Virus record (IMG/VR): IMGVR_UViG_3300038466_000102
Location: 1-45,253 of that record
DNA from: a virus
DNA length: 45,253 nucleotides
Direction: 5' to 3' (one strand)
The notes beneath the pieces are model-generated. The model was not told the origin of the DNA and searched no databases. It worked only from the letters and a program-made list of their open reading frames with translations. Shown in pieces: positions 9,009 through 45,253 of this stretch. Each line of letters opens with the position of its first letter. Within the stretch, counting starts at the first letter, position 1. Position numbers and translations under genes: made by a program.

Positions 9009-9013
9009 AAATT

Positions 9014-10180: not shown

Positions 10181-11026
10181 ATGTCCATATTTTTTAACAA
10201 TAACCAAAGACCAATTAATCCGGAGAGGACTTTATCTGAAAAGGTAAAGGATTTTGTTCGGCCTAAGCTTCTTTCCCCGCTTCAGGGTGAGCCAGACACT
10301 TTTTTAAACCGGGTTAAGGAATTGTTCAAACCCAACCTCAAATCACCTGCCACTGAAACTGATGAGGAAACGCTTCTTAATCGGCCGAAACCGGCACCCT
10401 CGCCATCAACGACACCAGTGGTTGCGCCGGTTTTTGCCCAGGAGAAAACTCCCGCAATCGCACCTATGCCTATACCTGCTGTTTCGCCTATGCCTACATT
10501 TACCCGGCCATTTGAGAAAGAGGCCACCGAGGTTTGGGGGGACAAAGTTGAGGAGTTTTATCGGGTAATGAAAGAGGGCGAAAATGCTAAACTTCAACCG
10601 GTTATAGATGTTCCTAACCGGACTATCAAAGATCCGGTTACTGGCAAGAAAGTATGGAACAATGCGCCTGATGCCCCGATTGACCAGATTTATAACCCGG
10701 ATACGGATAAAATGGAAGACTCCATTGACAGGGGGCTGGCCCGGATAAATAACGGTACTTTTTACTTACTACTTAATAGCTTGGAATACCGGCCGATGAT
10801 GAAAGAGGCGGGAATTACTGATACTAACGATGTCCATAAAGTTGATTTTCAGGTGGCTTGGGATAAAATGAACGATCCGGGCTATAATATAAAGATGTCC
10901 AAAATCATTTACCAGTTCCATGAAAACGAGAACAAAAAGAAAGGGATTAAGAAATCCGGTTGGTCTGGCTGGGTAGCTGCGCCAGAAGATTTGGTCAACT
11001 TGGAGGAATATGTCGCTAATAAGTAG
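10181..11026 (+). CDS. Putative internal virion protein; weak lytic-transglycosylase-like motif (EDSIDRGLARIN)
   Basis: Track ORF, 281 aa. The motif resemblance to SLT E-S...GLMQI is weak. Confidence 0.4.
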   Translation: MSIFFNNNQRPINPERTLSEKVKDFVRPKLLSPLQGEPDTFLNRVKELFKPNLKSPATETDEETLLNRPKPAPSPSTTPVVAPVFAQEKTPAIAPMPIPAVSPMPTFTRPFEKEATEVWGDKVEEFYRVMKEGENAKLQPVIDVPNRTIKDPVTGKKVWNNAPDAPIDQIYNPDTDKMEDSIDRGLARINNGTFYLLLNSLEYRPMMKEAGITDTNDVHKVDFQVAWDKMNDPGYNIKMSKIIYQFHENENKKKGIKKSGWSGWVAAPEDLVNLEEYVANK

Positions 11027-14000: not shown

Positions 14001-16973
14001 ATCCACCTTAACAATATCATGGGCAAGATCAATCAACTGTCCGAACAGGGGGTAACTGTCATCCGGGGGATCAAGCCGATCGGGGCGCCGGATAGGCGGG
14101 AGATTATGCTGACTAACCTGGACTATGGTAAAAAGACCAACCGTTTGCTTAACCAGAAGTGGGTCATGGAGGCAATTGAGAAACTTCATGCCCAGCCGGC
14201 GGCCGAGATGTCCAAGTCTTTCCTATCATTACTGCGGTCCATTCGTGGTAGCTCAGAGTTTGCCCCGGGAACACAGCGGATTTCCCCCAACCAAATCCGC
14301 ATGATCCGCACTCTTAAGAATCGTCTGCGGATTAAGAACCGGGAGATGCTGCCGATCCTAGACGAGTTGTTGGGTGATACCTCTTTTGCCAAAATGACCA
14401 AAGAGGATGGCGAGAAGATGATCGCCTGGCTGCAGCCACAGAACTACCGAATTATTGAAAAGCAGGTGGACCTGACCAAAGACCGGCTGGGCAAAGCCAG
14501 GCTGCAGGCGGTTATTGGCGAGCCATCAGTGGCTGTTAATGAAGAATTGGAAAAGAAGTTTAACTTGATTGATGTCATGAACCGGACAGCCGGCGATATT
14601 GAGAACATTACTAAAATGGTGGGCAACCTGCCGAAGATGGAAGCACCTAAATGGAATAATCTGCGCCGGGCTTTACTGCTACCGGCTAAAGCTTTGTCTG
14701 AAGACCTGGCTACAAAAATTCTCGGCATTAAGGGATCGTTCCATACTCCTCTACGGGCGATCATCAACATCAGCACCAAGTTCAAAAACCGGATGCATCT
14801 CAATCTATCCCAATTAGCTAAAGATTTATCTGAGGAAGAACGAAAAGCGGTCGCCTTTATCCAAGGCGGGGCCGAGAAAGAGTTTAAGGGGACAATCTCG
14901 CCCAAGGCAAGACAAACTGCTAATTATTTACAGGAAGTTTTCCGGGCAAACCTGGCTATTGTTAACCGGTTGCGCCAAGCAGTTAACCAACCGATCGTGC
15001 CAGAAAGAAATCCTTACATCTCTTATATTTTAAACCAGGACATTTTAGAGGCGGCCCATTTAGGCGATAGGGTAAAGTTTTGGGAACAGCGGGTAAAAAC
15101 TCCCAAAGACTTTGCTGCCGGTTTGTTTACCCAGGACCTTAACAGAATCTTTAAGATTTGGTCCGAGTCCTCAGCCAACTGGCTCAAGAAAAATCTTTAT
15201 CAGGCTCTCTTGGCTGATAAATTTGAGGAGATTTACAAGGTGTCTGATGCCGCTTCCATGTATGCCCGGACAATCATGGAGATGGATATTTATAATATGA
15301 TGGGGGATTTTGAGCGCTCGTTCCGGGTAATCGGCCAGGCCATCAATGACTCTGTCGGCAAGATTTATCCTAAGCGAATTCCGGTTAATGAAGAACTGGC
15401 TAAATCTTTGCTCAATACTACCTTTGGCCAGGAACTGATAGATTCCATTAAACACGGTTATCTTTATGTGCCACGCTTCCAACTGCCTAATGTTGGTGAA
15501 GTCTTTCATAAAGTGTTTTATCCGGCCAAGTTAGCCTGGAATTTCGGCTTTGCTGTTCTTAACCGGCAGCAACCCTGGGCAGCCACACCGTTTGTCGGAG
15601 TGATTAATAAACTTAAAGGACGGCTTAAACTTTACGGAGTGATGATGCCTTGGAATGGCAAGGCGCGAGACCGCTATATTTCCATGCTGGAATCTTCCGG
15701 TTACCAATTTGGCCGAATGATGTACGGTGAGCAATTTCCTACGGCTAAAAGCACGCTAGGAGTCTTTGTGGATCGGTCCATTAACTTTTTAAATGATGTT
15801 ACCGAGCTGGCCAACCGGATGGAGAATGCCATTGATGCTGAATATGTGCTGGCCAATTTGGAAAAAAAGGCTGGTATGACCTTGGAACGGCGTGACAAAG
15901 AGAAAATTGCCGGCCAATTCTCGGCTTTTATTAACTTTATCTCCGGCAAGAGCTATTCGCCGGTGGCCCAGCGCAATGCGATCGGCCGAGTGCTTTATAC
16001 TTTCCAGCAGTATCCGATCTACCAACTGAATGTATTTCACGAAATGCTCAAGTATGCCCATCAAGACAAAGGGGCGGCTGACTTTTGGAAGTTAATGAAT
16101 GACGAAGGTGGTGCTTCTGAAAAAGCTTACGAGGCTTTTCAAAAACTGCCGGATAAGAGTAAATCCCGCTACTTTGCCATTTTATTGGCAATTGCCATCC
16201 CGGTAGCCACCATTTATTCCATGTCCCGGTCCTGGTCAGTGGCTGCGCGGGCCTTGCCCGGAATGCCCAGAGTTGCCATGAATAATATTCTTAAAGCTTT
16301 ATTCGCTTGGGTTGATGATCCGAGCGATGACAATAGAGATGTTTTGGCGACAGAGATTAAAGGTTTCTTCCGGGTAACTGTAACTCAACGGGTAAATGAT
16401 GCTTTTGATGTGATGAAGACCGGCATCCTCCAAACTACCACCACCGGCCGACCGTTGTTTGTCCAAAAGACGATTGACAATGCGGTCCGGATGTTTGTCT
16501 TTGGCCGGTCCATTTTACCAGAGTACGAGAAACGCTACCCCAGCATTCTTTCCAAGATATTCGGCGGTCAAACAGAGGCCGGACAAGTTAAGAAACTGCA
16601 GAAGTCCCGGTTAAAACAGCAACAGACTGACACGGAAAACGCAGTGGAGTTTATGAAACGACTGGAGACCAGTAAAACTATTGAAGAGAAAAAGGCTTTG
16701 CTTAAAGAGTTTGCCGAGGCCGGCAAGTTTAATACTCAGATGAAAGATAAATTAAAACAGTACCTAACTGAAAAAACCACTGGCACCGGCGGTTTGGAAC
16801 GATCAATCATCGGTCTGAATGATGCTGATCAGGCTCAGTTTGTTTTAGACAATCTTAACAAGGCTAAAACTGTTGAGGCGAAGCAAGCTTTGCTGGCCGA
16901 CTATGCCCAGCGAGGAGTCCTAACTGCCAATGTAATTGCCGAAATGAAAAAACTATTGCTTAATAAAAAATGA
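11010..16973 (+). CDS. Giant polyvalent virion protein (1987 aa) with Dam-like N6-adenine DNA methyltransferase domain and a possible ART/PARP-like motif
   Basis: Track ORF; GGAGGA upstream. Contains DLFGGSG (13401-13415) and IDPPY (DPPY at 13830-13841) in the order motif I then motif IV. Contains VWYHGTSQKNAKSILKEGW (YHGT at 11802-11813). Hydrophobic segments lie in the C-terminal third. Confidence 0.7.
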   Translation: MSLISSFFQKSDAIRRKRLEAIQQQITSKLSQVKSKADVTVDTVKDYFTSGQVKEDIKKQYSLENIKRVFDPFSMLKTAARTYFYDPETKKALPQSLLRKENRPDMTKLANWKNLSEQEREQELQKTIVPMFMLSGAPQGVVNPGSRAYKKLTDEGWIRQKLGKEWAWVKPKGGFQGSALPNQPAIEAPTPLITPPAPVTPPTPTLGAGPQFIAATLAVPPVPLKPVVPPVAPTPIGPQPIIQEQKITTPLATEATKYKSTEVWYHGTSQKNAKSILKEGWNPTKSDTPNESPYALFASKETGDVNDHSAGLYNRGAMLEIRPKPNANIKGEDYWYQTFGKSHGAEESAQIAKNAIAEGVDIVKDPSGEVYILNPKSVDIKMVTKATQAKGVTPQLAGKPAIPPTETHPLINESFVRLADEANKNTDALRGGTWFTNKGGIGSLQYAIKEKIIGGGTLFKGNLNPKNPLVVKEAQLEDGSLNVINLGYENYIKPKYYKILDHMMATILYPESGAELPDDQIDIHLMNALEAADIPETQAIKVLNVTPKNKLDVTADMIMTKALKEEGYDALILLTEGGQKHVLNFDTSKAFEPAPPKLTIAKLEKQELGEHFKDFISQAKTGESYTSRVNKLSEVADKPEISNDRVMLRQLRTLVRKEILKLTGLDAGGTGHWKQDFAYLQMIKADPAVADQVTALEELIYKLDEKIGVNVQAKIADFSEDLGLPTTADYYIPVRKYSTRGTGNREWIQQNIPLVYMGNKRGMVGYILDVLGIKRDDLQFLNSQDTAHLPFTQVYDLFGGSGLLANLSTKLFPKAQITYNEYDPQVVKAIETVKTNPRPVTRFIKEVGIWLQDHPGADWLAHFQLVHKSDPMFRTAAKLIEATAGRTGEVTAQKIANMVKAVPNYAKAFKDVQTTNEDAFAIMDRLIANPPSKGSTLVYIDPPYWGSAGYAQGAEMMRSSGFMKVLDYIGKLDKVGVKVIAFNNDPEVQAPKAGLEEIHLNNIMGKINQLSEQGVTVIRGIKPIGAPDRREIMLTNLDYGKKTNRLLNQKWVMEAIEKLHAQPAAEMSKSFLSLLRSIRGSSEFAPGTQRISPNQIRMIRTLKNRLRIKNREMLPILDELLGDTSFAKMTKEDGEKMIAWLQPQNYRIIEKQVDLTKDRLGKARLQAVIGEPSVAVNEELEKKFNLIDVMNRTAGDIENITKMVGNLPKMEAPKWNNLRRALLLPAKALSEDLATKILGIKGSFHTPLRAIINISTKFKNRMHLNLSQLAKDLSEEERKAVAFIQGGAEKEFKGTISPKARQTANYLQEVFRANLAIVNRLRQAVNQPIVPERNPYISYILNQDILEAAHLGDRVKFWEQRVKTPKDFAAGLFTQDLNRIFKIWSESSANWLKKNLYQALLADKFEEIYKVSDAASMYARTIMEMDIYNMMGDFERSFRVIGQAINDSVGKIYPKRIPVNEELAKSLLNTTFGQELIDSIKHGYLYVPRFQLPNVGEVFHKVFYPAKLAWNFGFAVLNRQQPWAATPFVGVINKLKGRLKLYGVMMPWNGKARDRYISMLESSGYQFGRMMYGEQFPTAKSTLGVFVDRSINFLNDVTELANRMENAIDAEYVLANLEKKAGMTLERRDKEKIAGQFSAFINFISGKSYSPVAQRNAIGRVLYTFQQYPIYQLNVFHEMLKYAHQDKGAADFWKLMNDEGGASEKAYEAFQKLPDKSKSRYFAILLAIAIPVATIYSMSRSWSVAARALPGMPRVAMNNILKALFAWVDDPSDDNRDVLATEIKGFFRVTVTQRVNDAFDVMKTGILQTTTTGRPLFVQKTIDNAVRMFVFGRSILPEYEKRYPSILSKIFGGQTEAGQVKKLQKSRLKQQQTDTENAVEFMKRLETSKTIEEKKALLKEFAEAGKFNTQMKDKLKQYLTEKTTGTGGLERSIIGLNDADQAQFVLDNLNKAKTVEAKQALLADYAQRGVLTANVIAEMKKLLLNKK

Positions 16974-16976: not shown

Positions 16977-16985
16977 TGATATAAT
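16977..16985 (+). promoter_or_regulatory. Extended -10-like element TGaTATAAT, 6 nt before ATG 16992
   Basis: Read directly; no SD before 16992. Confidence 0.45.
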
Positions 16986-16991
16986 TAATTT

Positions 16992-17297
16992 ATGGACAAT
17001 AATACACGTCAGGCATTTCTCCAGGCTTTACAGAGTAGAGGATTAGTAGGTAACCAAACTAATGTCGGCGGCCCCCAAGGAATGGATCAAGGTAGGATGA
17101 TGATGGCCGGTAGGCAGATGAACGGCACCCAGGGAGGCGCAGGAATGTCCCAAGGTCCGATTGACCAGCTTAAAATGTCCCAGCCTGACGAAGCGGTTTA
17201 TATTGTTAGGGCTTTGGCAGCCAGATTAAAAGCTTTATCAGATATGGAGATGGGCAAGGACCAGCAGCCAGCGCAACCGGCCCCAGCCATGGCTTAA
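16992..17297 (+). CDS. Hypothetical Gln/Gly/Met-rich protein
   Basis: Track ORF, 101 aa. Confidence 0.65.
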   Translation: MDNNTRQAFLQALQSRGLVGNQTNVGGPQGMDQGRMMMAGRQMNGTQGGAGMSQGPIDQLKMSQPDEAVYIVRALAARLKALSDMEMGKDQQPAQPAPAMA

Positions 17298-17298: not shown

Positions 17299-17523
17299 AT
17301 GCCAAAACAAACCAGTTATGATTTACTAAAAGAAGTCTATACTATTGTCAATAGGCTTGAAGATAAAGTGGACAAAAGAGTAGGTTTAACGGAGGGAAGG
17401 TTGGATAAGATTGAAGGTAAAGTAGATAACTTATTAGGTAAAATCGGCATCGGTGTGATGGTGGTTTCGGCAGTTATCTCCAGCGGAATAGCTTTTCTTT
17501 TTAGCTTTTTAAAGAAAGATTAA
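17299..17523 (+). CDS. Small membrane-anchored protein in the lysis cassette (holin-like)
   Basis: Track ORF, 74 aa. It has a C-terminal hydrophobic helix (IGIGVMVVSAVISSGIAFLFSFL) and abuts the endolysin gene. Confidence 0.55.
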   Translation: MPKQTSYDLLKEVYTIVNRLEDKVDKRVGLTEGRLDKIEGKVDNLLGKIGIGVMVVSAVISSGIAFLFSFLKKD

Positions 17524-18461
17524 TGATTAATTTACAACAATTGATAGATAAGTATAATGGCAAGCCTTGCGAGGTGGCCGGTTCGGCTGACGCTAAAAAC
17601 CAGTGTGTGGATTTAGCCAATGCCTATATCAGAGATGTCTGGGGTTTGCCGATAGTAGAGTGGACCAATGCAGTGGACTTTCCCGAAAAGATCACCAACT
17701 GTAATTTTATTGCCAATACTCCTGATGGAATGCCCAACCCGGGAGATTTGGCTGTCTTTAAGAAATACGGCTCGCTTTATGGTATAAATGGACATATCGG
17801 GGTAGTGATGGAAGCCACTCTGAATTCAATGAAAATTTTTGGGCAGAATTACCCGACCGGCTCGCTGTGCAAGATAGGCACGCATAATTATCTTGGCTGC
17901 CGCGGCTGGCTGAGAAAGAAAGAAACTATGTTTGATGATGAAATGGTAATTAAAAAGTCAGAGTATAAAAATCTTTTTGAGGGAAACCAGCTTTTCCAGC
18001 AGTTTAAAGACAATGGTTATTCCTCGGTTGCCGATGTCAAAGCAGATATTGCCGCCCGCAATAAAACTATTGAAGAGCAAAAGGCTGAGATTAAGCTTGC
18101 TAACGATGCCGCTACTGAAGATAAAAACTCTTATCAGGCATTACGGGACGCAGTGGCCAAGGCTTTAGGCGTCACTCAGGATGTCAATCAAATCAATGCG
18201 GCCCTGACTAAACTGGAAAAAGACCTGGATGATTATGATACGGTGAAACGCAATCTGGCCACTCTCCAAACGGCTTTTGATACTAGTGTCGGAAACTCCA
18301 CCGCCACGATTAAAGCCTACGAGGCCTTAATGAAGAATGCCTACAGCCCAGCGGAGTTGGCTAAAATACTCGCCAATAAACGGTCCGAGCTGATTTGGAA
18401 ATTGATGGTTAGTTTGATTAAAGACATTAAAATTTCTTTACCTAAATTAAAGAGGGGGTGA
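17523..18461 (+). CDS. CHAP-domain endolysin with long helical C-terminal region
   Basis: Track ORF. Has the Cys motif KNQCVDLANAY and the downstream His motif NGHIGVV typical of CHAP amidase/peptidases. Confidence 0.8.
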   Translation: MINLQQLIDKYNGKPCEVAGSADAKNQCVDLANAYIRDVWGLPIVEWTNAVDFPEKITNCNFIANTPDGMPNPGDLAVFKKYGSLYGINGHIGVVMEATLNSMKIFGQNYPTGSLCKIGTHNYLGCRGWLRKKETMFDDEMVIKKSEYKNLFEGNQLFQQFKDNGYSSVADVKADIAARNKTIEEQKAEIKLANDAATEDKNSYQALRDAVAKALGVTQDVNQINAALTKLEKDLDDYDTVKRNLATLQTAFDTSVGNSTATIKAYEALMKNAYSPAELAKILANKRSELIWKLMVSLIKDIKISLPKLKRG

Positions 18462-20835: not shown

Positions 20836-21098
20836 AGCGTACCAGTAAGTGGCAGATGTTTTTTAAACGGATGCCTTTGGGGAAAATATTTGAGATACGG
20901 ATTGCCCAGCATATTGCTAAATGCGGCTGTGAGCCTAAGGTAATCTTTATTGGCCCAGATGATTTTGCTCTTTTCAGGGCCAGGGCGGCAGTAGGAAAAG
21001 AACAGTTTGTTTTGGGTTTGGGTAATCCACCCAAGCTATTTTGGCGGGGCATTGAGTTAATTAAATTGGAGGAAAAGCATGAAGTTCCAACCAGCTAA
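20832..21098 (+). CDS. Hypothetical protein (88 aa)
   Basis: Track ORF 20802..21098. The ATG at 20832 forms an ATGA overlap with the upstream stop. Confidence 0.55.
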   Translation: MKRTSKWQMFFKRMPLGKIFEIRIAQHIAKCGCEPKVIFIGPDDFALFRARAAVGKEQFVLGLGNPPKLFWRGIELIKLEEKHEVPTS

Positions 21099-21378
21099 AA
21101 ACATCGTTGTTCTTAAACCTTTAAAGACGGATGATTTGAAGGCAATGGGGATTGTCCGCAACTCTATCATTGAGGCGGCCGTGTCCAAACAGCCGCAACT
21201 CGGCCAAGTGGTCCAAGTCGGCGATATTAAGAAAGACAGCGAGCTGCCGTTCAGAGAGCTTAAGTCCGGCGATGTGGTTGCTTACCGGGAGTTCGGCGAC
21301 AATAAATTTATGCTGGGCATGGAAGAGGTGGTTTTTGTGGTGTTTGAGGATATATTAAGTATTTTGAAGAAGGAGTAA
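21079..21378 (+). CDS. groS: Co-chaperonin GroES/Cpn10 homologue
   Basis: Track ORF, 99 aa; GGAGGA upstream. Its length and pattern (KP..N.VV.KP...; GQVV.VGD; SGDVV.Y; E.DIL..L) match Cpn10, and it sits 0.4 kb upstream of GroEL. Confidence 0.75.
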   Translation: MKFQPAKNIVVLKPLKTDDLKAMGIVRNSIIEAAVSKQPQLGQVVQVGDIKKDSELPFRELKSGDVVAYREFGDNKFMLGMEEVVFVVFEDILSILKKE

Positions 21379-21762: not shown

Positions 21763-23352
21763 ATGCGCGTCTATCATCGCCCGATTTGTTTTAAAGAAGA
21801 TGCCCGGACTAAATTGTTTAAGGGTGTTCAGATATTATCCGATGCCGTCACCACGACTCTCGGTCCCAAAGGCCGGAACGTGGCGGTCCTGCGGCAGTGG
21901 GGTACTCCGATTGTGGTTCATGACGGCGTGACTGTGGCCCGGGAGGTGGACTCGGACGATGTGTTTGAGAAGATCGGCATCATGCTGGTCAAGGAAGCGG
22001 CTCAGAAGACTAACGATGAGGCCGGGGACGGCACGACTACTGCGACCCTTTTGGCTTATGAGATTGTCCGGCAGGGGCTGGAGTTGATCAAGACCGGCTA
22101 TAATCCGATGGTGCTACGGAATGAAATTTATGCGGCTTTGCCGAAACTTCTGGAAAAGTTAAAGTCTATTTCCACTCCGGTTAAAGAGAACAAGGAGATT
22201 GCCCAGGTGGCCTTTATCAGCGCGGCCGATGAGTCAATCGGTAATTTAGTGGCCGGCGCGGTAACTAAGATGGGTGAAGACGGCTTGGTTACGGTTGACG
22301 AGGGGGAGACGATGGAGACGATTGTGGAATATACCAAGGGGATGGAGATCAAGCGCGGCTACTTTTCGCCTTACCTGATCACTAACGAGCAGCGGATGGA
22401 AGCGGTTATCATTAATCCGGTCATTGCCATCATCAATAAAAAGTTAACTCTTGCCAATGAAATGGTCCCGATCCTGTCGGAGATGGCCAAGGTTAGTAAA
22501 GACATTGTGATTATTGCTGATGACATCTCCGGCGATGCCTTGGCGACAATGATTCAGAATAAGCTTAAAGGGAACATTAATGCCGTAGGTATCTCTGCCC
22601 CGACTATGGACCGGGAAGCCGAACTGGCGGATATTGCCGTGGTGGTTGGTGGCAAGGTGATGTCCGAAAAGACCGGTTTTGACTTAAACACTTTGGAGCA
22701 ATCGCTTGGCCATGCCAAGAAGTTTGTGGCGGCCAGGGATAAATCCACGATCATTGACGGCGCCGGCACTAAAGAGCAGATCGCCGAGCGGGCCAAAGCC
22801 ATTAAGGCTCAAATGAAGCACGATCATAACAAATTTGAGAAGGAAAAATACGAGACGCGCCTGGCCCGGCTGACTACCGGTGTGGCCGTGATCAAGGTCG
22901 GTGCTAAAACTGAGATTGATATGCGGGAGAAAGTGGAGCGGGTTAAAGACGCTGTAGGCGCTGCTGAAGCGGCCAGGGAAGAGGGGATCATCCCCGGAGG
23001 CGGAACTGCCTTTATCAAGCTCAAAGCGGCCCTCAAAGGCACCACAGCGGGCGAGAAGCTGCTTTTAAATGTGCTGGACAGTCCGGTCCGGAAGCTGATG
23101 CAAAATGCCGGCGAGAGCGAAAATAAGATCAAGGAAGTAATTGATTCAATCCCTGACGGTCCGGCCAGTCTTGGTTACGAAATAAACCAGGGCAAAATTA
23201 TGGACCTTAAAGAAAAAGGGGTGATTGATCCGACCAAGGTGGTTCGGTTGGCCTTAGAGAATGCTGTCGGTGTCGGCACGTCTATATTAACTACTGACTG
23301 CTTGATCGGCCTGGTGGTTAAAGAGCAGGGTGGAGGCAAGACTTATGAGTGA
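21763..23352 (+). CDS. groL: Chaperonin GroEL/Cpn60 homologue (lacks the GGM tail)
   Basis: Track ORF, 529 aa. It contains TLGPKGRNV, DEAGDGTTTATLLA, GVAVIKVGA.TE, and GGG followed by GVIDPTKV, collinear with bacterial GroEL. Confidence 0.93.
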   Translation: MRVYHRPICFKEDARTKLFKGVQILSDAVTTTLGPKGRNVAVLRQWGTPIVVHDGVTVAREVDSDDVFEKIGIMLVKEAAQKTNDEAGDGTTTATLLAYEIVRQGLELIKTGYNPMVLRNEIYAALPKLLEKLKSISTPVKENKEIAQVAFISAADESIGNLVAGAVTKMGEDGLVTVDEGETMETIVEYTKGMEIKRGYFSPYLITNEQRMEAVIINPVIAIINKKLTLANEMVPILSEMAKVSKDIVIIADDISGDALATMIQNKLKGNINAVGISAPTMDREAELADIAVVVGGKVMSEKTGFDLNTLEQSLGHAKKFVAARDKSTIIDGAGTKEQIAERAKAIKAQMKHDHNKFEKEKYETRLARLTTGVAVIKVGAKTEIDMREKVERVKDAVGAAEAAREEGIIPGGGTAFIKLKAALKGTTAGEKLLLNVLDSPVRKLMQNAGESENKIKEVIDSIPDGPASLGYEINQGKIMDLKEKGVIDPTKVVRLALENAVGVGTSILTTDCLIGLVVKEQGGGKTYE

Positions 23353-32332: not shown

Positions 32333-32384
32333 GCTATCGGGTAATCTTGGTCTTGACAGGCTGTTTCCGGTTATGGTTAACTGG
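32333..32384 (+). repeat. 52-nt repeat copy 1 carrying a promoter-like module (GCTATCGGGT-N6-GGTCTTGACA...)
   Basis: Identical to 33717-33768. TTGACA at 32353-32358; the best -10 candidate is TGgTTAACT at 32374-32382. Confidence 0.85.
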
Positions 32385-32413
32385 CTATATTATTAAGTTT
32401 TAAAGGAGGGATT

Positions 32414-32698
32414 ATGCCTAAGTCAAAAGCTTTGGTCCCCTTTATTCGCGGTTATCAAATTAAGCGCCATGATTTTATAGTGGAGACGCCGGAAGTGTTG
32501 CACGTGTATTTTACCGGCCCGATCCATAATCTTAAGGAATTGCCGACCGGCTATCGTGGTTTAAGGTCAGCGTTGGTTAATTTGGATGATGTTCTTGCTG
32601 TCGGTTTGGATGTGCAGGAATATTGGGAAGTTAAAACCGGCAAGTTTCGTGGTTTGACTGTGCTTTGGCTAACGTGTGTGGCCGAGGAGGATTTATGA
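32414..32698 (+). CDS. Hypothetical protein (94 aa)
   Basis: Track ORF; AAGGAGGG upstream. Confidence 0.65.
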   Translation: MPKSKALVPFIRGYQIKRHDFIVETPEVLHVYFTGPIHNLKELPTGYRGLRSALVNLDDVLAVGLDVQEYWEVKTGKFRGLTVLWLTCVAEEDL

Positions 32699-33168: not shown

Positions 33169-33193
33169 CTTGTCCGGCGCTATCGGGTTTTTT
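33155..33193 (+). terminator. Intrinsic-terminator-like hairpin plus T-run
   Basis: AGCGCCGG (33155-33162) pairs with CCGGCGCT (33174-33181); ATCGGG then TTTTTT follows. Confidence 0.55.
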
Positions 33194-33228
33194 GGGTCTT
33201 GACATCCGGTTTTGGCTATGCCATCAAT
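33179..33228 (+). promoter_or_regulatory. Third, diverged copy of the promoter-like module (GCTATCGGGT-N6-GGTCTTGACA-T-CCGGTTTTGGCTA)
   Basis: It has the same 26-nt frame as the 52-nt repeats, with TTGACA at 33199-33204. The -10 is unclear. Confidence 0.45.
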
Positions 33229-33716: not shown

Positions 33717-33768
33717 GCTATCGGGTAATCTTGGTCTTGACAGGCTGTTTCCGGTTATGGTTAACTGG
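33717..33768 (+). repeat. 52-nt repeat copy 2 carrying the promoter-like module
   Basis: Identical to 32333-32384; TTGACA at 33737-33742. Confidence 0.85.
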
Positions 33769-33797
33769 GGTAGTTATTAATTTTAGGAGGAGGGTTT

Positions 33798-34076
33798 ATG
33801 TCTGCTACTACTCAAAAGCCCAACCGGGATCCGCTGGTGGCTTGTTTGTCGCTTATTATTCAGGCCCATGAGTCGTTGGGTCGCTATTATGATGAGGCGG
33901 CTAAGGCCGGTTTATCCGGTGATCGGTTGGTCACTCTGACTAAAGGATTTATTGCCCTTGAGTTGGCTTCTTCCGGGCTTCGGTCGTTGCCTGACATTGA
34001 CGATTTGGTGTCGGCTCGCAGTCCGATGGTTGCTGAGCCTGGCCTTCGCGGATCAGTGAAACGGAGGTGGAATTAA
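33798..34076 (+). CDS. Hypothetical protein (92 aa)
   Basis: Track ORF; AGGAGGAGGG upstream. Confidence 0.65.
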   Translation: MSATTQKPNRDPLVACLSLIIQAHESLGRYYDEAAKAGLSGDRLVTLTKGFIALELASSGLRSLPDIDDLVSARSPMVAEPGLRGSVKRRWN

Positions 34077-35001: not shown

Positions 35002-35172
35002 ATGCCTCGTAAAGTAATTAATCATTGTGCCTACTGCCAGAAGCAGGTGGACCGTAATGTTTTCTGCAGGAACTCCCACCGGGTGATGTTTTTCCTTAAG
35101 AAGAAAAAGCAGGAGGAGAAAATGGCGGCAGCGGTTCTAAGGAAGGCGCTTGCTTCTAAACCTAATGTCTAA
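35002..35172 (+). CDS. Small Zn-ribbon protein (TRASH/FCS-like) immediately upstream of terL
   Basis: In-frame ATG in track ORF 34984..35172. Contains CAYCQKQV...VFCRNSH and a basic tail. It overlaps the terL start. Confidence 0.55.
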   Translation: MPRKVINHCAYCQKQVDRNVFCRNSHRVMFFLKKKKQEEKMAAAVLRKALASKPNV

Positions 35173-36793
35173 CTCTACTTTCTCTCTTTCTCAGGCCGAG
35201 GCGTTTAATTCTCTTGCCTGGATACTTAATAATAAGATCGTCAATGAAAACGGTTCCTCCTTGGAGTTTGCCGACCATTCCTTTATGATTGATCCTTTCC
35301 TGGATAACTCTGAGCGCCAGGTAGCTGAGAAATGCTCGCAGATCGGCTGGTCAACCTTAGCCATTCTTAGAAGCTTCCATTTAGCCCGCTACGCCGGCGC
35401 TAATATCATTCACACCTTTCCCTCCCGTAATATGTCTAAAGACTTTGTCATCCCTAAAGTCAATCCGCTTATCCAAAGAAATCCGTCTATTAAGGCTATG
35501 GTCGGGACCGACTCCTTAAATCTTAAGCAGGTGGGGGACCGCTTTATCTACTACAGGGGCAGTTATGAGCAAACAGAGGCTATCAGTATCTCTGCCCATA
35601 TCCTGATTAATGATGAGTACGATCGTTCTAATCAAAAGGTCTTAAAGACTTACCGCAGCCGCTTAGATGACGCTAAACGTGAGCGGCCTGAGCTTGGCTG
35701 GGAGTGGCGCTTCTCCAACCCTTCCATCCCCGGTTATGGCGTGGATGAGCTATGGCAGAAGTCGGACCAAAAGCATTGGTTTGTTAAATGCTCGCATTGC
35801 AATCGGGACTGGTATTTGGACTTTCCAGAGAACATTAATTTTGATACTAAACAAAAGGTCTGTGATAAATGCCATAAGCCTTTTTCTAAGTATGACCTAA
35901 CCACCGGCCGTTGGGTTAACAAGGCCGAGTCTAAAATCTCCGGCTACTGGATTTCGCAGATGTTTGTTCCCTGGATCAGTGCCACTAAGATCATTGAGGA
36001 CTCTGAGGGTGATCCGGGTGTGTTCCATAACTTTACTTTAGGCAAACCCTTTATCAGCAAGGATGCTTCTGTTTCCCGGCAGGCGATCCTGCGCTGCATT
36101 GTGGCGACTACTAACTCCCGCGCCGGCGTAGCTATCGGCGTGGATAATGGTATCACTAAGCATTATGTTGTCGGCAACCGCACCGGCATTTTCCTGGTCG
36201 GGGAGACTAAAGATTGGGGGGTGATTGAAGATCTACGAAATAAGTTTAATGCTACCATGGTGATTGACGCTTTGCCTTACCCAAATGAACCGACCCGGAT
36301 GATGAATAAATACCGGGGCAAGGTTTTCCTTTCCTACTATCAGCCGGACAAGCGGGCGTCAGGCATGGTTTATTGGGATTATGACGACGGGATTGTCCGT
36401 TCGGACCGGACCAAAATAATTGACTTTGTGGTGGCAGAGATTAACAGTAATGATGTTAAGTTTAACCTGACTGCTAACGATCTGGATCAGTATATCTGGC
36501 ATTGGCAGCAGCTTTACCGGGTAGTGGAGCTTAACACCCAGGGTATCTTGAAACCTAAATGGAAATGTATTGAGGCTAGACCGGATCACTATGCTCATGC
36601 TACAGTGTTCTGGAGGCTTGCCTTAGAGCAGACGTTAGGGCAAGGCGGCGTAGTTGGTCCCACTGCTGCCATATCATTAAAAGACCGGCACCAGGAAGTA
36701 GGACCCGACTCTACCGTTCCTGCACTTAACTTGGAAGAGGTCGTCAGGCGGGCCTCGTTTGGTCCTAGCCACCGGTCCTGGAAAGTGCGATAA
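35150..36793 (+). CDS. terL: Terminase large subunit (GpA-like)
   Basis: Track ORF, 547 aa. Has the Walker-B-like ILINDEYD and an internal CSHCN...CDKCH zinc motif as in GpA-type terminases. A portal-sized gene follows. The start may be TTG 35150 or ATG 35165. Confidence 0.75.
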   Translation: MLLNLMSNSTFSLSQAEAFNSLAWILNNKIVNENGSSLEFADHSFMIDPFLDNSERQVAEKCSQIGWSTLAILRSFHLARYAGANIIHTFPSRNMSKDFVIPKVNPLIQRNPSIKAMVGTDSLNLKQVGDRFIYYRGSYEQTEAISISAHILINDEYDRSNQKVLKTYRSRLDDAKRERPELGWEWRFSNPSIPGYGVDELWQKSDQKHWFVKCSHCNRDWYLDFPENINFDTKQKVCDKCHKPFSKYDLTTGRWVNKAESKISGYWISQMFVPWISATKIIEDSEGDPGVFHNFTLGKPFISKDASVSRQAILRCIVATTNSRAGVAIGVDNGITKHYVVGNRTGIFLVGETKDWGVIEDLRNKFNATMVIDALPYPNEPTRMMNKYRGKVFLSYYQPDKRASGMVYWDYDDGIVRSDRTKIIDFVVAEINSNDVKFNLTANDLDQYIWHWQQLYRVVELNTQGILKPKWKCIEARPDHYAHATVFWRLALEQTLGQGGVVGPTAAISLKDRHQEVGPDSTVPALNLEEVVRRASFGPSHRSWKVR

Positions 36794-36802
36794 TGATATA
36801 AT
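36794..36802 (+). promoter_or_regulatory. Extended -10-like element TGaTATAAT, 5 nt before ATG 36808
   Basis: No SD is present; 19-nt identity with 8999-9017. Confidence 0.45.
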
Positions 36803-36807
36803 AAATT

Positions 36808-37050
36808 ATGGATGAACTTCTTCCCGAAAAAGAGTTATGTACTGACAAGTATGCGACTTTGTTCTTTGGCCGGCTTAGTGACGGCCGGAAGCATAACTGT
36901 AGGTGCATGAACTGCGGCAAGCTGATGTTTAAATATGACGGTAATTTGGAGGCGGTGTTTTTGGATGGAGGCATCGTTCCTAATAGTGCTTCCTTTGAGG
37001 AAAACAAATGTGGAAGGTGTGGTTATAATTACCGGATTGTTAAAATGTGA
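36808..37050 (+). CDS. Com-like zinc-finger protein
   Basis: Track ORF. RCMNCGKLMFKYDG...KCGRCG parallels Mu Com RCKNCNKLLFKADS...RCPRC. Confidence 0.45.
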   Translation: MDELLPEKELCTDKYATLFFGRLSDGRKHNCRCMNCGKLMFKYDGNLEAVFLDGGIVPNSASFEENKCGRCGYNYRIVKM

Positions 37051-37056
37051 TAAAAT
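37048..37056 (+). promoter_or_regulatory. Extended -10-like element TGaTAAAAT, 6 nt before ATG 37063
   Basis: Read directly; no SD before the portal gene. Confidence 0.4.
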
Positions 37057-37062
37057 TAAACT

Positions 37063-39087
37063 ATGCCAATACCTAACTTAACCAATACCGGCGACGAGAA
37101 TCAAAGCGGATTTGGGGATAACACGGAAGCTTTTTCTTTGGGGATGAAGGATGAGGATTTATTGGCAATGGTGAAAAGCAAAGTGACTGCTTCTACCGCT
37201 TTCTGGGATAAAACATATAATTTGAGTACGGTCCGGAAAAACAACCAAATGCGCTGGGAGAATAAAAATTTGGAAGTGTCGCCGGACGGAGGCGTGCTTT
37301 ATGACTTTCAAGTGCCTTACCGTGACAACCGCATCTTTACCTCGGTGGAGACGCTGATGGGGGCTCTGGCTTCTAAAATGCCTGAGCCGGTCGTGCTGGA
37401 GGCGTTTGATACTGATGCTTCGCGGGAGCTGGCTCAGAACTACGGCCAGGTGTTAATGCGTTGGGCGGACGAGGTTAATTTAGTCGGTAACTTTCAGCAG
37501 GCGATCCGGCATTTGCTGCAGGGTTACCGGGTAGGGATAATTAAATGGTGGTGGGACTTTTACGATGGGATCATGAAACCGGATGGTTCGTTTTATGGTA
37601 TGCCTAAAGTTAAGGTTTGCCAGCCGGATAGAGTGGTGATTGGTGATAAAGCGACTAACCCGGCAGATGTGCCTTTTATCGCTGAGTATATGTCCTCTAC
37701 TTTGGATGAGTTGCTGATCAGGTTTCCCAATAAAAAAGCCGAGTTGTTTATGCAGGCGGGGATTACTAACGGGGAGTATGACTGGAGATTGTTAAATAAG
37801 GAAGCGGATTATGTGGAAAGCTGGTTTACTTTTTATTCTGAGGGACAAAGGAAAGAAGGCGTTTGCTGGACCTTGGGCGACACGATTCTGCTGGACTCCG
37901 GTATTAATCCTTACTTTAACTATACTGAAGCCGAGGGGACTAATATTCATCCCCGGCCGATGAAGCCTTATGCTTTAATTAACTTCTTAAATACCGGCAA
38001 GTGGGCCTTGGATGATACTTCGCTGACTGAACAGGCGGCTACCCTGCAGGATGTCTTAGAGAAGCGTGGCCGACAGATCGTGGAGAATGCCGATCAGGCT
38101 AATTCAACGAAAGTGTTTAATGTCAATATGATTGACGCTACGGCGGTGGAGCGCTATGTCGGCGATCCGAATCAGTCATTAATGGTCAAAGGCAGCGTTA
38201 ATGAAGCTTTTAAACGTGAGCCCCCGGCCCTGCTGCCCTCTTATGTCTTGCAGGATAAGTACGATGCCCGGTCGGAGATTGACAATATTTTCGGCACTCA
38301 TGCGCCTTTGCGCGGAGAAAAGACTGCTTCGCCGACTTTAGGCCAGGAACAGTTATCGCAGCGCTCGGACCTGGGCCGGCTGGAGGTGCTGTCGCAGTCC
38401 TTGGAAGTTTCCGCTAATGCTATTTATGCCGGGGTGACGCAGCTATACAAGGTTTTCGGGGTAGAAGAGCATATGATGAAGTTTCTCGGTCCGGATGGCA
38501 AGACGGCGTTTTATAAGTTTTCCCGGGATAAGATTGAGGATGGGATTGAGATTAAGATTCAGCACGGATCCATGCGGCCGGATGATGTCACTATGGACAA
38601 GATGCAGGCAATGGAGATCGCCAAAATCGGCGGCCAGATTGACCCGCTGACTTTAGCGGAGAAGATGCATTGGCCTAAGGCCAGGGAGCTGGCTAAACGG
38701 ATGATCAGCTTTGCCTGGATGCCGGACCAATACATCAAGGAAGTGCTGGGGCAGGGAGCGGATGAAGGGCAGCAGGAAGTGATCCAGACTATCCAAAGGA
38801 TAAACTCCGGGCGGGCAGTAGAGGCTAAGACTGATGCTTCTAAAGACTATATTGCCGGCTACCGTTCTTATTTAAGTTCGCCGGCTTTCCAACAGTTGCC
38901 GCCACAGCTGCAGCAGCTTCACTTAGTTCATGTTAAGGCCACCTTGGCCGCTTCTAAAGGTTCACTCTCCGGCAAAAAGCCGGCTGGGCAGGACTTCGGC
39001 GAGGGCGAAGATAAACCAAATATTTTCAAAAAATTCCGTGATATTATTTTAAAGCAGCGTAGCGGGGCGAAGGAGGAGAATGCCTAA
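37063..39087 (+). CDS. Portal protein (by size and position)
   Basis: Track ORF, 674 aa, between terL and the scaffold/capsid genes. No specific motif was recognised. Confidence 0.6.
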   Translation: MPIPNLTNTGDENQSGFGDNTEAFSLGMKDEDLLAMVKSKVTASTAFWDKTYNLSTVRKNNQMRWENKNLEVSPDGGVLYDFQVPYRDNRIFTSVETLMGALASKMPEPVVLEAFDTDASRELAQNYGQVLMRWADEVNLVGNFQQAIRHLLQGYRVGIIKWWWDFYDGIMKPDGSFYGMPKVKVCQPDRVVIGDKATNPADVPFIAEYMSSTLDELLIRFPNKKAELFMQAGITNGEYDWRLLNKEADYVESWFTFYSEGQRKEGVCWTLGDTILLDSGINPYFNYTEAEGTNIHPRPMKPYALINFLNTGKWALDDTSLTEQAATLQDVLEKRGRQIVENADQANSTKVFNVNMIDATAVERYVGDPNQSLMVKGSVNEAFKREPPALLPSYVLQDKYDARSEIDNIFGTHAPLRGEKTASPTLGQEQLSQRSDLGRLEVLSQSLEVSANAIYAGVTQLYKVFGVEEHMMKFLGPDGKTAFYKFSRDKIEDGIEIKIQHGSMRPDDVTMDKMQAMEIAKIGGQIDPLTLAEKMHWPKARELAKRMISFAWMPDQYIKEVLGQGADEGQQEVIQTIQRINSGRAVEAKTDASKDYIAGYRSYLSSPAFQQLPPQLQQLHLVHVKATLAASKGSLSGKKPAGQDFGEGEDKPNIFKKFRDIILKQRSGAKEENA

Positions 39088-39562: not shown

Positions 39563-39592
39563 TTGACAAAATTAGACCGTTCGGAGTATTAT
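39563..39592 (+). promoter_or_regulatory. Sigma70-like promoter (TTGACA-18 nt-TATTAT) for the capsid gene
   Basis: TTGACA at 39563-39568 and TATTAT at 39587-39592, intergenic. Confidence 0.6.
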
Positions 39593-42655: not shown

Positions 42656-42684
42656 AGCCAGGGGCATTTGCCTCCGGCTTTTTT
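42656..42684 (+). terminator. Intrinsic terminator
   Basis: AGCCAGGGGC pairs with GCCTCCGGCT (42656-42679; 9 of 10 positions pair, one of them G.U), with an ATTT loop. The T-run reaches 42684. Confidence 0.7.
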
Positions 42685-42686
42685 GG

Positions 42687-42695
42687 TGGTATAAT
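42687..42695 (+). promoter_or_regulatory. Extended -10 element TGgTATAAT, 6 nt before ATG 42702
   Basis: It lies directly after the terminator; no SD before 42702. Confidence 0.55.
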
Positions 42696-42701
42696 ATATT
42701 C

Positions 42702-42998
42702 ATGGCGACACCTACTTCTGATCCTTTTACCCATTATTTTACCTTTGATGTTGGCGATGTGTTTGTCACCGGCAAGGTGGAGTTTGACCAAGATAACAAG
42801 ATGACTTTTCATGTCATTAAAATCTCTACTCCGATGGACGACGAGACGCTGCATTTGTTTCTGGACTGGCTGGATTTTTTGCGGAAGGTGTTTGAGAAGT
42901 ATAAAAAGATTAAGCGGATCGGCGTCATGGAGCTGGAGTTTGCCAAAGAGTCTTTGGAATCAGTCGTTAAAAAAGAGACAGAAATAAAACCAAAATAA
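42702..42998 (+). CDS. Hypothetical protein (98 aa)
   Basis: Track ORF. Confidence 0.6.
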   Translation: MATPTSDPFTHYFTFDVGDVFVTGKVEFDQDNKMTFHVIKISTPMDDETLHLFLDWLDFLRKVFEKYKKIKRIGVMELEFAKESLESVVKKETEIKPK

Positions 42999-43015: not shown

Positions 43016-43780
43016 ATGGCCAGATCGCAGTTAATGACTCCTTTAGTTGAGGATTTAGTCCGGCAGCCGGCAACTGATGACAATTTAATCCGTCTGCGGC
43101 AGGAAATGACTAGGTTGGCGGGATTGCGGGACCGGATCGTGCAGGAGATCCGCAAGCTTTACCGGGTTCTTGATAATCTTAAATCCAAAAAGGAGATAAC
43201 TGAAGCTGATTTGTCTACTTATGCGGCCCGGGAAATGGCGGAGATTAAAACAATCGGGGCGGATATTTTTAAACAGTTTGCCGAAATGAAAGCGGAATTG
43301 TCTGCCCGGTCGTTAAACTTGACCAGAAAAGAGCTGAGTTTAGCCGGTTTGGATACGGACCAGGATAAAAGGGAAGCATTTCTCCTCAAGGAGACGCGCC
43401 ACAATGCGCTGGAAGAGGTTAAACTATCAACAGCTTGGCAGGATGTGGCCACTGCTAGGAAATCTGCCCATCTTTTCGTCAAGCAGTCCCAGGAAGCCCA
43501 AATTAAAGCGGTAGAGTTGCGGCAGGAGGCTTTTCGGCTGTTCACTTTAAGGAAAAACCAGTTTGACGACCAGCAGCAGCAATGGAAAGAGCGGTCAAAG
43601 GCGTTAGCAGAGCGGGAAAAAGAGGCTTTAGTTAATGCCCGGAAGATTAAAGCGGTGGCCGAAGCGGTGGAAAAAGAGAAGCAGCGGCTGGAGATTTGGG
43701 ATAAACAGCTCAAGGACAAGGAGGGGACCTTGGTCCGGTCAGCCCGGGAGCTTGAAAAGCAAAAAGCTAATGTGATATAA
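43016..43780 (+). CDS. Coiled-coil virion-module protein
   Basis: Track ORF; AAGAGG upstream; charged, heptad-like sequence throughout. Confidence 0.6.
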
Positions 43781-43781
43781 T
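43773..43781 (+). promoter_or_regulatory. Extended -10-like element TGaTATAAT, 6 nt before ATG 43788
   Basis: Read directly; no SD. It overlaps the stop codon of the upstream gene. Confidence 0.45.
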
Positions 43782-43787
43782 TTAGTT

Positions 43788-44675
43788 ATGGCTGACGAAA
43801 TCTTAAAACTTGATGCGGATTTTAGACCAGTAATCGGAGCGGTTACTAATGACGCTAATCTTTATGTCACGATGCTTCGGGTGGACCCGGTCACTAAGAG
43901 ACTTTTGGTTGACACAACTATAGATATTGAGTCTGTCGCTGACGGTGCAGCCGTGGATGCCGCCAATGAAGGAATGTTGGTCTTGGGTACGGATGGCAGC
44001 AATTATCAGATATTGGCAGTGGATTCTTCCGGTAATTTACAGGCGGATATTGTGGCAGCCCTGCCAGCGGGGACAAATGCCATTGGTAAGTTAGCCGCTA
44101 ACTCCGGTGTAGATATAGGCGATGTGGATGTTTTAAGTATTGCCGCCGGGACAAATCTTATCGGAAAAGTGGGGATTGACCAGGTTACGGCAAACGCTAA
44201 TGAGGTTGTAGTTAAATCTATTACCGCCGGGGATACAAATATTGGTAATGTTGATATTGCTTCAGCTCTCCCTGCCGGGACTAATGCGATTGGAAAATTA
44301 GCGGCCAATAGCGGGGTGGACATCGGCGACGTGGATGTGACCTCGTTTGTTATTGCTGTGCCGACCAATGATACTTCTGCTGCTTATGAGGCTTCAAGCG
44401 TGTCTAAAGCGTCAACAGGGACATTGTGGGGGTTTTCCGGATATAATTCAAAGACATCAGCTCAATTTATTCAAGTTCATAATACTGCTTCACTTCCGGC
44501 AGATGCATCGGTCCCGGTTATTGTTATTTACGTTCCCGCGATGTCTAATTTTTCAGTAGATTTTGGGATAAGAGGAAGAGCTTTTTCAACAGGCATTACC
44601 ATTTGTAACTCCAGCACCGGACCGACAAAAACAATAGGAAGCGCGGACTGCTGGTTTGATGTTCAATATACTTAA
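43788..44675 (+). CDS. Fibre/decoration-like protein with internal AGTN.IGK repeats
   Basis: Track ORF. The 25-aa block [25 protein letters not shown] occurs twice (44058-44132 and 44265-44339). Confidence 0.6.
44667..44672 (+). promoter_or_regulatory. -10-like hexamer TATACT, 6 nt before ATG 44679
   Basis: Read directly; no SD before the tail-fibre start; no TG extension. Confidence 0.3.
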
Positions 44676-44678
44676 AAT

Positions 44679-45253
44679 ATGAAGTTAGATATTACTCCCA
44701 ACACACCATACGATGTAGGATTGCTTACTCCCACCGACCTCAAAATCTCTACTGCCTCAAAGGGTGGGGTGTTACGGAGTATTGATGGGGCGACAGGGGA
44801 TGTGGCAAGGACGACAACGGGTCAGATTGAAGATGCAAAATATGGATGGACGGCTTATCAAATCGCTACTGCTTGGAGTGCAGAATTTGATACTGCGGTT
44901 ACAAGAACTGGCTTAAAGACACTTAAACTATCAACAACCGATGCAACAGGAAAAATTGTTGCTTATAATATAGATAATAATTTTGAGACAGGTTATATAC
45001 TAAAATTTGTTCCCATTAAAGCAAGCACCTCATATACTCTTTCTTGTTATGTAAAAACCAATAATTGTGCTGCTAATTCAGCATTCCTGACATTTTTTGA
45101 ATATACTCAAGCTGCTCAAGTTGCAAATACTAAAACAAACAAGCTTTCAGGAACTAATGATTGGACTTTGTGTACTGTAACTATAACTACATTAGCCACG
45201 ACTAAGTTTCTTTTAATTGAATTAAATAATTCTGTCGCTGGCAATATCTCAGA
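44679..45253 (+). CDS. Tail fibre / receptor-binding protein, 5' part (continues at base 100 after the 99-nt overlap; CBM4/9-like jelly-roll)
   Basis: Hand translation MKLDITPNTPYD... runs to the window end with no stop. The segment ...TSYTLSCYVKTNN...NDWTLCTVTITT...LLIELNN..AGNISDAWFD fits a carbohydrate-binding-module pattern. Confidence 0.7.
   Translation, partial: MKLDITPNTPYDVGLLTPTDLKISTASKGGVLRSIDGATGDVARTTTGQIEDAKYGWTAYQIATAWSAEFDTAVTRTGLKTLKLSTTDATGKIVAYNIDNNFETGYILKFVPIKASTSYTLSCYVKTNNCAANSAFLTFFEYTQAAQVANTKTNKLSGTNDWTLCTVTITTLATTKFLLIELNNSVAGNIS
45155..45253. repeat. Terminal overlap, right copy (identical to 1-99)
   Basis: 99/99 identity with the left end. Confidence 0.97.

Follow-up and report, generated by a model that had tools for sequence, protein, structure and literature searches.

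The DNA analysed here is the whole of the IMG/VR virus record IMGVR_UViG_3300038466_000102 (45,253 nucleotides (nt), hereafter the window), and the elements in question are eight boxes resembling the -10 promoter hexamer that stand directly before start codons of this phage genome. All genes in the window lie on the + strand. Its ends form an exact 99-bp direct repeat (1-99 and 45155-45253), so the assembly is circular or terminally redundant and its true length is 45,154 bp. The original prediction proposed that the boxes may serve late genes as promoters of leaderless transcripts, and it listed eight sites with spacings of 5, 5, 6, 6, 6, 6, 6 and 9 nt to the start codon. All of these positions and spacings were recovered, as follows:

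4206-4226, + strand: box TGCTATAAT at 4206-4214, 9-nt spacer, ATG at 4224
9000-9016, + strand: box TGATATAAT at 9000-9008, 5-nt spacer AAATT, ATG at 9014
16977-16994, + strand: box TGATATAAT at 16977-16985, 6-nt spacer, ATG at 16992
36794-36810, + strand: box TGATATAAT at 36794-36802, 5-nt spacer AAATT, ATG at 36808
37048-37065, + strand: box TGATAAAAT at 37048-37056, 6-nt spacer, portal ATG at 37063
42661-42704, + strand: hairpin and T-run at 42661-42684, box TGGTATAAT at 42687-42695, 6-nt spacer, ATG at 42702
43773-43790, + strand: box TGATATAAT at 43773-43781, 6-nt spacer, ATG at 43788
44667-44681, + strand: box TATACT at 44667-44672 (no TG), 6-nt spacer, ATG at 44679

Every one of the eight starts is an ATG and none has a Shine-Dalgarno (SD) sequence; the GGTG flagged as SD-like at 42702 belongs to TGGTGGTATAAT. 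The 9-mer TGATATAAT occurs four times (9000, 16977, 36794 and 43773), each time before an ATG, and the 19-nt identity of the 9000 and 36794 sites, ATGATATAATAAATTATGG, was confirmed, as was the terminator-like hairpin with its T-run directly 5' of the 42687 box. The six 9-mers of the form TGnTATAAT have an ATG 5, 5, 6, 6, 6 or 9 nt downstream, which in each case is the first possible start of a + strand open reading frame (ORF) of 80-386 codons and has an in-frame stop 3-9 nt 5' of it. Two weaker boxes, TGATAAAAT at 37048 and TATACT at 44667, likewise stand 5-9 nt before the first ATG of an ORF. The TG extension is found in seven of the eight boxes; the site at 44667 is present at the predicted spacing but lacks the extension and is the weakest of the set.

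The box at 4206 lies in a 33-nt gap after the gene ending at 4190 and precedes a gene for 302 amino acids (aa) with weak tail-fibre-like matches (4224-5132); its 9-nt spacing predicts a leader of 2-3 nt, which qualifies the claim of a leaderless start at that site. At 9000 the upstream ORF ends on the TGA of the box, and the gene that follows (9014-10174, 386 aa) has no family match. The 16977 box has TTG in front, reads TTGTGATATAAT and heads a lysis cassette made up of 16992-17297, 17299-17523 and a CHAP endolysin gene at 17523-18461. The 36794 box starts one base past the TerL stop (36793) and heads the gene for an 80-aa Cys-rich protein (36808-37050), and the portal box at 37048, which with the TG in front becomes TGTGATAAAAT, contributes its TGA as the stop of the upstream gene. 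The gene at 42702 (42702-42998) encodes 98 aa. The 43773 box also has TG in front, with a TTGAAA 18 nt upstream; the TAA within its hexamer is the stop of the upstream gene, and the gene behind it (43788-44675) encodes 295 aa. The spacer of the 44667 box includes the TAA of the upstream gene and, because the window ends repeat exactly (99 bp), the ORF from 44679 crosses the circular junction and runs in frame into 100-2074 (~850 codons). A simple promoter scan returned TTGACA-like matches, among them those at 43752 and 42668, in numbers within chance (22 found versus 20.2 expected).

When the window was tiled with 75 ORFs, 47 had an SD, 7 were boxed, 21 had neither signal and none had both; the eighth boxed ORF extends past the end of the window. 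The expectation that most other genes carry an SD held for these 47, all of the GGAGG type, but not for the 21 with neither signal. All eight boxed genes belong to the packaging, head, tail and lysis module, and the early region at 18.4-35 kb contains none.

The boxes might in principle be a chance product of A/T-rich gene junctions, given that intergenic DNA has a high A/T content and that TATAAT is in part similar to stop codons. This explanation was effectively refuted by shuffle, motif, positional and phage controls. The four copies of TGATATAAT compare with a mean of 0.50 in dinucleotide-preserving shuffles, of which 0 of 100 reached four, while TGNTATAAT occurs six times in the window, always on the + strand, against a shuffle mean of 2.06 and a maximum of 5. 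We extended the comparison to a family of related phages. A portal search returned 218 homologues, many of them on 40-45-kb metagenomic contigs (portal single-sequence scans of IMG/VR and GTDB genomes gave no match), and the family set was defined as 88 related loci (L-numbered) plus the window, 802 kb in all, with a non-redundant set of 67 loci and 700 kb. In the family set TGNTATAAT occurs 107 times on the gene strand versus 24 times on the opposite strand; an ATG follows at 5, 6, 7 or 8 nt in 4, 31, 10 and 8 cases, in 46 of which the ATG begins an ORF of at least 60 codons, and five composition-matched control 9-mers gave no spacing peak in the same set. The non-redundant set has 89 copies on the gene strand versus 18 on the opposite strand. 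Forty-one of these 89 have the leaderless geometry, which no control motif shows more than 5 times, and 18 have an SD-led gene within 120 nt. For a gene-centred count in the non-redundant set we required at least five of six matches to TATAAT, with A2 and T6 obligatory and the hexamer ending 5-8 nt upstream of the start. By this criterion 107 of 712 ORF-first ATGs (15%) were boxed versus 46 of 3496 internal in-frame ATGs (1.3%). The Bacillus phage SPP1, an SD-led genome of 44 kb and 44% GC used as negative control, had 0 of 56 ORFs boxed at 5-8 nt, and the window under the same script had 6 of 53. The boxes are also conserved despite sequence change, in relatives whose portal proteins are 32-50% identical, which again speaks against chance.

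The alignment of the 107 family sites on the hexamer allowed us to examine positions that had not been used for selection. G-16 is present in 59 sites, T-15 in 78 and G-14 in 68, and the TG dinucleotide at -15/-14 occurs in 59 of 107 (55%) versus a dinucleotide background of 6.4%. The resulting consensus at boxed starts is TRTGnTATAAT. No information was found at -30 to -37 of these starts, and the distribution of the best TTGACA matches is that of random positions. The distance from box to ATG has its mode at 6 nt (61, 20, 17 and 9 sites at 6, 7, 8 and 5 nt). A hexamer at -12 to -7 followed by a 6-nt spacer places the A of the ATG at +1, in agreement with established promoter geometry. The TRTG motif is part of the extended -10 (TGn) class known from Gram-positive sigma-A promoters, an element contacted by sigma, and this TG signature is not known to play a part in translation.

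An alternative is that the boxes act in translation only, with no transcription starting at them, either as A/U-rich initiation regions independent of an SD (S1-type enhancers) or as termination-reinitiation junctions on long polycistronic late mRNAs. Seven of the eight window boxes overlap or abut an upstream stop with no terminator before them, and at 9000, 37048 and 43773 the TGA or TAA within the box is itself that stop, as this explanation would have it. In the family, however, the gap between the upstream stop and the ATG varies from -5 to ~200 nt while the distance from box to ATG stays constant at 6 +/- 1, which means that the box tracks the start codon and not the junction. Stop codons do not account for the TG at -15/-14 or for G-16, since in only 8 of the 59 cases does the TG come from the TGA that ends an upstream ORF. 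What is conserved is the exact TRTGnTATAAT consensus rather than generic A/U richness, and matched 9-mers lack such placement. One box (42687) sits behind a terminator, and the same 9-mer is found 20-120 nt upstream of SD-led genes in relatives (e.g. L087 8847, L072 8855 and L065 181), where a promoter would be the only sensible reading of the motif. Non-SD ribosome-binding sites are expected at operon-internal genes generally (PMC6028130), that is, operon-wide, yet 47 of the 75 window ORFs use an SD. We therefore consider an exclusively translational role improbable.

Two narrower forms of it were examined and rejected. A non-SD ribosome-binding motif of the Bacteroidetes type (GeneMarkS-2 group B) fits neither the 47 of 75 ORFs with a GGAGG-type SD nor a box that has the extended -10 consensus and is also found upstream of leadered genes. 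Pure termination-reinitiation coupling fits neither the variable stop-ATG gap of the family at fixed box position nor the box after the terminator at 42687. Translational coupling may still contribute at the tight junctions of the window. T4-type late promoters (TATAAATA, read with the phage sigma gp55/gp33) were also rejected: the consensus here is TRTGnTATAAT, and scans of Pfam and PHROGs gave no sigma-like match.

The boxes might also be promoters of transcripts that do have leaders, either with transcription starting elsewhere or with the true start codons lying downstream behind an SD. The 9-nt spacing at 4206 fits a short leader, and weak SD-like tetramers precede some internal TTG or ATG codons. 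For the nearest of these internal candidates, though, the distance from the boxed ATG is 9 to more than 70 codons, and their SDs are 4-mers only. Each boxed ATG is the first codon to follow an in-frame stop, 33 portal homologues share the conserved N-terminus from M1 (MxxPN...), and the spacing mode of 6 nt is the canonical distance from -10 to +1. Taken together, these observations make leadered transcripts a very improbable account of the boxes.

Box conservation in related phages was one of the checks proposed with the original prediction, and its outcome was positive. The portal ATG is boxed (at least five of six hexamer matches at 5-8 nt) in 28 of 54 distinct relatives, a hexamer with four of six matches precedes it in 5 more, and the box is kept in relatives down to ~32% portal identity. 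The hexamers themselves differ (TAAAAT, TATAAT, TAGAAT, TATAGT), and with the extension they take the forms TGTGATAAAAT, TGGTATAAT, TGCTATAAT and TATAGAAT. Seven portal orthologues have an SD in place of the box and four have a hairpin and T-run. Of the other sites, the 36794 box is kept in the close relatives L001 and L010 as TGCTATAAT 5 nt before the ATG, and the 42687 box is kept in L001, L034 and L036. Orthologues of the 43788 gene have a box in L011, L020 and L036 and an SD in L002, L004, L006, L052 and L087. Swaps between box and SD were found at the starts of the 43788 gene, the 42702 gene and TerL, the last of which is boxed in 12 relatives and unboxed in the window. Loss of the box with retention of the gene in close relatives had been named as an outcome that would count against leaderless promoters; the box is indeed lost at some orthologues, but with an SD in its place. 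Box and SD appear from these comparisons to be alternative solutions at one start.

In more distant relatives we observed another arrangement, in which an element resembling an intrinsic terminator (a G+C hairpin with a T-run) comes within ~10-20 nt after an extended -10 promoter, with the gene's ATG right behind this element and often without an SD:

Upstream of the portal gene: L055, L056, L057, L068, L050 and L065
At other positions: L087 (6745 and 15068), L002 (12362), L033 (3289), L072 (2709), L078 (21050) and L085 (18085)

The promoter-proximal hairpin could be a terminator that needs antitermination, like lambda PR'-tR' with Q, or a stabilising hairpin at the 5' end. Some portal homologues (P0048 and P0062; L063 1453-4341 and L064 1439-4219) have ~1000 aa and match the intein/LAGLIDADG families PF14528 and PF14890; their genes are interrupted by an intein.

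Our preferred interpretation, to which we give a probability of about 0.8, is that the eight boxes are -35-independent, TG-extended -10 promoters for leaderless mRNAs. Leaderless genes in bacteria are marked by a Pribnow box at a distance of 6-8 nt from the start (PMC6028130), and in D. radiodurans a motif 6-7 bp upstream of ORFs was found experimentally to be the promoter of leaderless mRNAs (PMC12340547). A box at 6 nt matches both, and a leaderless promoter mechanism is the most likely one here. The host's primary sigma-70-family holoenzyme would bind the TG-extended -10 without a -35, and transcription would begin at the A of the AUG or within ~3 nt of it (2-3 nt upstream at 4206). The resulting mRNAs would have neither 5' untranslated region (UTR) nor SD, and the ribosome would bind the 5'-terminal AUG by the leaderless pathway. 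The boxes, packed tightly against the 3' ends of the genes before them, would open sub-operons within the module for packaging, head, tail and lysis. The phage would copy the gene-start grammar of its probable hosts of the candidate phyla radiation (CPR, Patescibacteria), whose sampled starts are a mix of SD-led and leaderless-type ones. The tests made at the sequence level all favour promoters placed for leaderless transcripts over SD-independent translation boxes, and the claim of the original prediction is supported by the spacing, the TG extension, the leadered copies, the mutual exclusion of box and SD, the relatives and the CPR loci described below. From these data we infer the start of RNA polymerase (RNAP) at the boxes, leaderless translation, the host assignment and the late timing.

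Several observations weigh against this interpretation. Seven of the eight boxes have no upstream terminator and their genes must also be present on read-through RNA; the stop-ATG gaps in the window are only 3-14 nt and would permit reinitiation; and the 44667 box is weak. Folding of the 5' coding region, GC content and A-richness were alike in boxed and SD-led genes, of which the folding result counts on this side as well. The only relative with a named host, the TM7 phage introduced below, is boxed at 1 of 54 ORFs and has mostly leadered SD starts. The CPR sample consists of syntenic groEL neighbourhoods whose starts are not independent, is small and relies on automatic gene calls. Finally, late timing would not be explained by an unaided host-sigma promoter.

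The following annotated genes of the window, and one locus outside it, serve as landmarks:

35150-36793, + strand: TerL (family annotation)
37063-39087, + strand: portal, P22/SU10-like
17523-18461, + strand: CHAP endolysin, lysis cassette
21079-21378, + strand: GroES
21763-23352, + strand: GroEL
L094, 15183-16625: locus noted together with the phage-encoded GroES and GroEL

Three indirect lines of evidence suggest that the hosts are probably ultra-small CPR bacteria. The only deposited relative is the TM7 (Saccharibacteria) phage DolZOral124_53_65 (MG269973.1), whose record names a candidate division TM7 host; its portal protein aligns over 90% of the query with 29.6% identity, and TerL and Cpn60 are encoded there as well. 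An alignment-based portal scan of genomes found one 5.7-kb contig in a metagenome-assembled genome of 'Candidatus Paceibacterota'. The phage GroEL is common to the whole phage family, with more than 100 homologues, many on 37-45-kb contigs, in addition to the TM7 phage. The nearest cellular match to the phage GroEL, at ~47% identity, lies on a 259-kb contig. The GroEL of this contig in turn shares 70-73% identity with the proteins of Gottesman-, Blackburn-, Beckwith- and Curtissbacteria (Microgenomates-type CPR). Groundwater, 0.1-um fractions included, is also the source of many of the relatives. When 10 kb of the window were compared with deposited phages by Megablast there was no match, a tRNA scan of the window found none, and Rfam at gathering thresholds gave no match in it.

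The original prediction also proposed a search for the -10-at-start signature in the host genome, and this search was positive in the probable host lineage. We used five ~20-kb loci around groEL from Microgenomates-type CPR genomes (L089-L093). A hexamer with at least five of six matches stands at 5-9 nt before 25 of 104 called starts (24%) versus 8 of 534 internal ATGs, and 13 of the 25 carry the TGn extension. Twenty of the 104 starts, including those of groES and groEL, have an SD, and none has both signals. In L089 a divergent gene pair (7731/7765) has back-to-back boxes of the leaderless type, TGATAAAAT 6 nt and TGTGGTAAACT 7 nt before the ATG; further examples are TGATATAGT at 6 nt in L090 and TGATATAAT at 9 nt in L092. 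Start-type usage may differ within CPR, to judge from the TM7 phage with its mostly leadered SD starts. We also noted that a PEGA/SH3 gene downstream of groEL is boxed in four of these genomes (L090 11757, L091 15479, L092 11765 and L093 12764), with hexamers that are all different (TATAGT, TACAAT, TATATT and TAAAAT).

Other promoters in the window differ in kind from the eight boxes and provide contrast cases:

39563-39592, + strand: leadered late promoter, TTGACA-18-TATTAT, of the gene resembling that of a major capsid protein (MCP)
32333-32419, 33179-33212 and 33717-33803, + strand: promoter-like repeat in three copies

The MCP-like gene has a 5'UTR of ~60 nt, then ATG 39660, and extends to 40726. 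The start of this gene is ATG 39660 and not the TTG 39563 of the ORF finder. In the 5'UTR a 14-bp hairpin pairs the SD AAAGGGG (minimum free energy -22.8 kcal/mol, z = -3.76) and may control translation of the capsid gene. Much of the late module may be expressed from the boxes, as originally proposed, but the MCP-like gene has a leadered promoter of its own and a strong SD stands before many late genes. The three repeats have the form GCTATCGGGT...GGTCTTGACA, with GGTCTTGACA invariant and a poor -10; behind each copy come a leader, a very strong SD and a small early ORF. The repeats are probably early promoters, and the conserved block upstream of their -35 could be the site of a regulator.

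This division of promoter types bears on another explanation, in which the boxes are real leaderless promoters that need a phage factor, either a late sigma that has escaped recognition or an appropriator that, like T4 AsiA or P23-45 gp39, blocks -35 recognition. Such a factor would shift RNAP from -35-dependent early to -35-less late promoters, and a factor of the blocking kind would yield the early-to-late switch. Such a requirement is consistent with the restriction of boxed genes to the structural and lysis module, none being in the early region, and with the contrast between the early repeats, where TTGACA is invariant and the -10 poor, and the late boxes, which show a consensus -10 but lack a -35. 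In the early region of the relative L004 (381-551) we found a 56-aa protein with a Sigma70_r4 match, of which no counterpart was detected in the window. In the Thermus phage P23-45, two proteins that bind host RNAP, gp39 and gp76, are tabulated under shut-off of host transcription (PMC3594737). On the other hand, no sigma, anti-sigma or RNAP families were found when 55 small ORFs and every large ORF of the window were scanned with Pfam and PHROGs, and the same box with the same spacing heads CPR housekeeping genes, so that the host enzyme alone presumably reads it. We regard dependence on a phage factor as rather unlikely.

Comparison with known systems shows where the boxes fit. GeneMarkS-2 group C (Mycobacterium, Streptomyces, Corynebacterium and Deinococcus-Thermus) is alike in having a -10 hexamer TANNNT 6-8 nt before the start, AUG starts without SD, and the coexistence of such genes with SD-led genes in one genome; it differs in that the case here is a phage of a probable CPR host. 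The commonest hexamer in Deinococcus is TACACT, while the phage family has a near-consensus TATAAT with a strong TRTG extension. Classical extended -10 promoters, which drive leadered mRNAs, share the T-15/G-14, the G-16 and the dispensable -35, whereas here +1 is predicted to fall on the start codon. The middle/late promoters of the Thermus thermophilus phage phiYS40 are reportedly of the extended -10 type without a -35 and read by host RNAP (Sevostyanova et al. 2007; Berdygulova et al. 2011). The middle and late mRNAs of phiYS40 are mostly leaderless (reviewed in PMC3594737), and in this class phiYS40 and P23-45 resemble the present phage, although they belong to an unrelated phage lineage and infect an unrelated host phylum. 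For phiYS40, 5' ends have been mapped and changes in IF2/IF3 reported, whereas the phage described here is known from sequence alone, and, unlike in phiYS40, boxes are found at only 8 of the ~30 genes of the late module, with strong SDs kept at many late genes. The lambda cI mRNA from PRM, the classic leaderless phage transcript (cited in PMC12340547), likewise begins with AUG but comes from a single regulatory gene with an activator-dependent promoter and not from a class of structural genes. The TM7 phage is of similar size (38.8 kb), has a related portal as well as TerL and Cpn60, and is recorded from a CPR host; it differs in that its -10-like boxes are mostly followed by leaders of ~20-30 nt with an SD.

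The mechanism is already known in Actinobacteria, Deinococcus-Thermus and phage phiYS40, and the interest here lies in the probable host lineage. In the literature searched, leaderless expression was not described for CPR bacteria or for phages of CPR, and supplementary data of the Deinococcus-Thermus paper gave no match to Patescibacteria, Saccharibacteria or Nanosynbacter. We tentatively suggest, at somewhat less than even odds, that CPR (at least of the Microgenomates type) and the large family of ~40-45-kb GroEL phages infecting them form a further major group with pervasive leaderless expression from TRTGnTATAAT, and that the phages confine this signal to late genes as opposed to -35-dependent early promoters, which would imply a temporal switch like that of phiYS40 through an unrecognised phage factor. 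If true, CPR would be the third large bacterial lineage rich in leaderless genes. CPR have reduced ribosomes and a reduced set of biogenesis factors, and translation of a quarter of their genes from leaderless mRNAs, if borne out, would bear on initiation in minimal translation systems. Wherever gene finders or phage annotators rely on an SD, starts in CPR genomes and in phages of this kind will be put in the wrong place or overlooked, and recognition of the start type TRTGnTATAAT-6-ATG would improve start calling and operon maps. The match in start grammar between phage and CPR could serve as cheap, culture-independent evidence of host for uncultured groundwater phages, and the opposition of -35-dependent early and -35-less late promoters gives a testable model of timing for a phage with no recognisable regulator.

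One further gene of the window deserves mention. A protein of 1987 aa encoded in the tail region (11010-16973) gave no Pfam match, and a PDB sequence search aimed at virion RNAP was also empty; its sole similarity is to DNA methyltransferases, in a short segment (aa 887-987). Possibly this is a multi-domain virion protein that is ejected.

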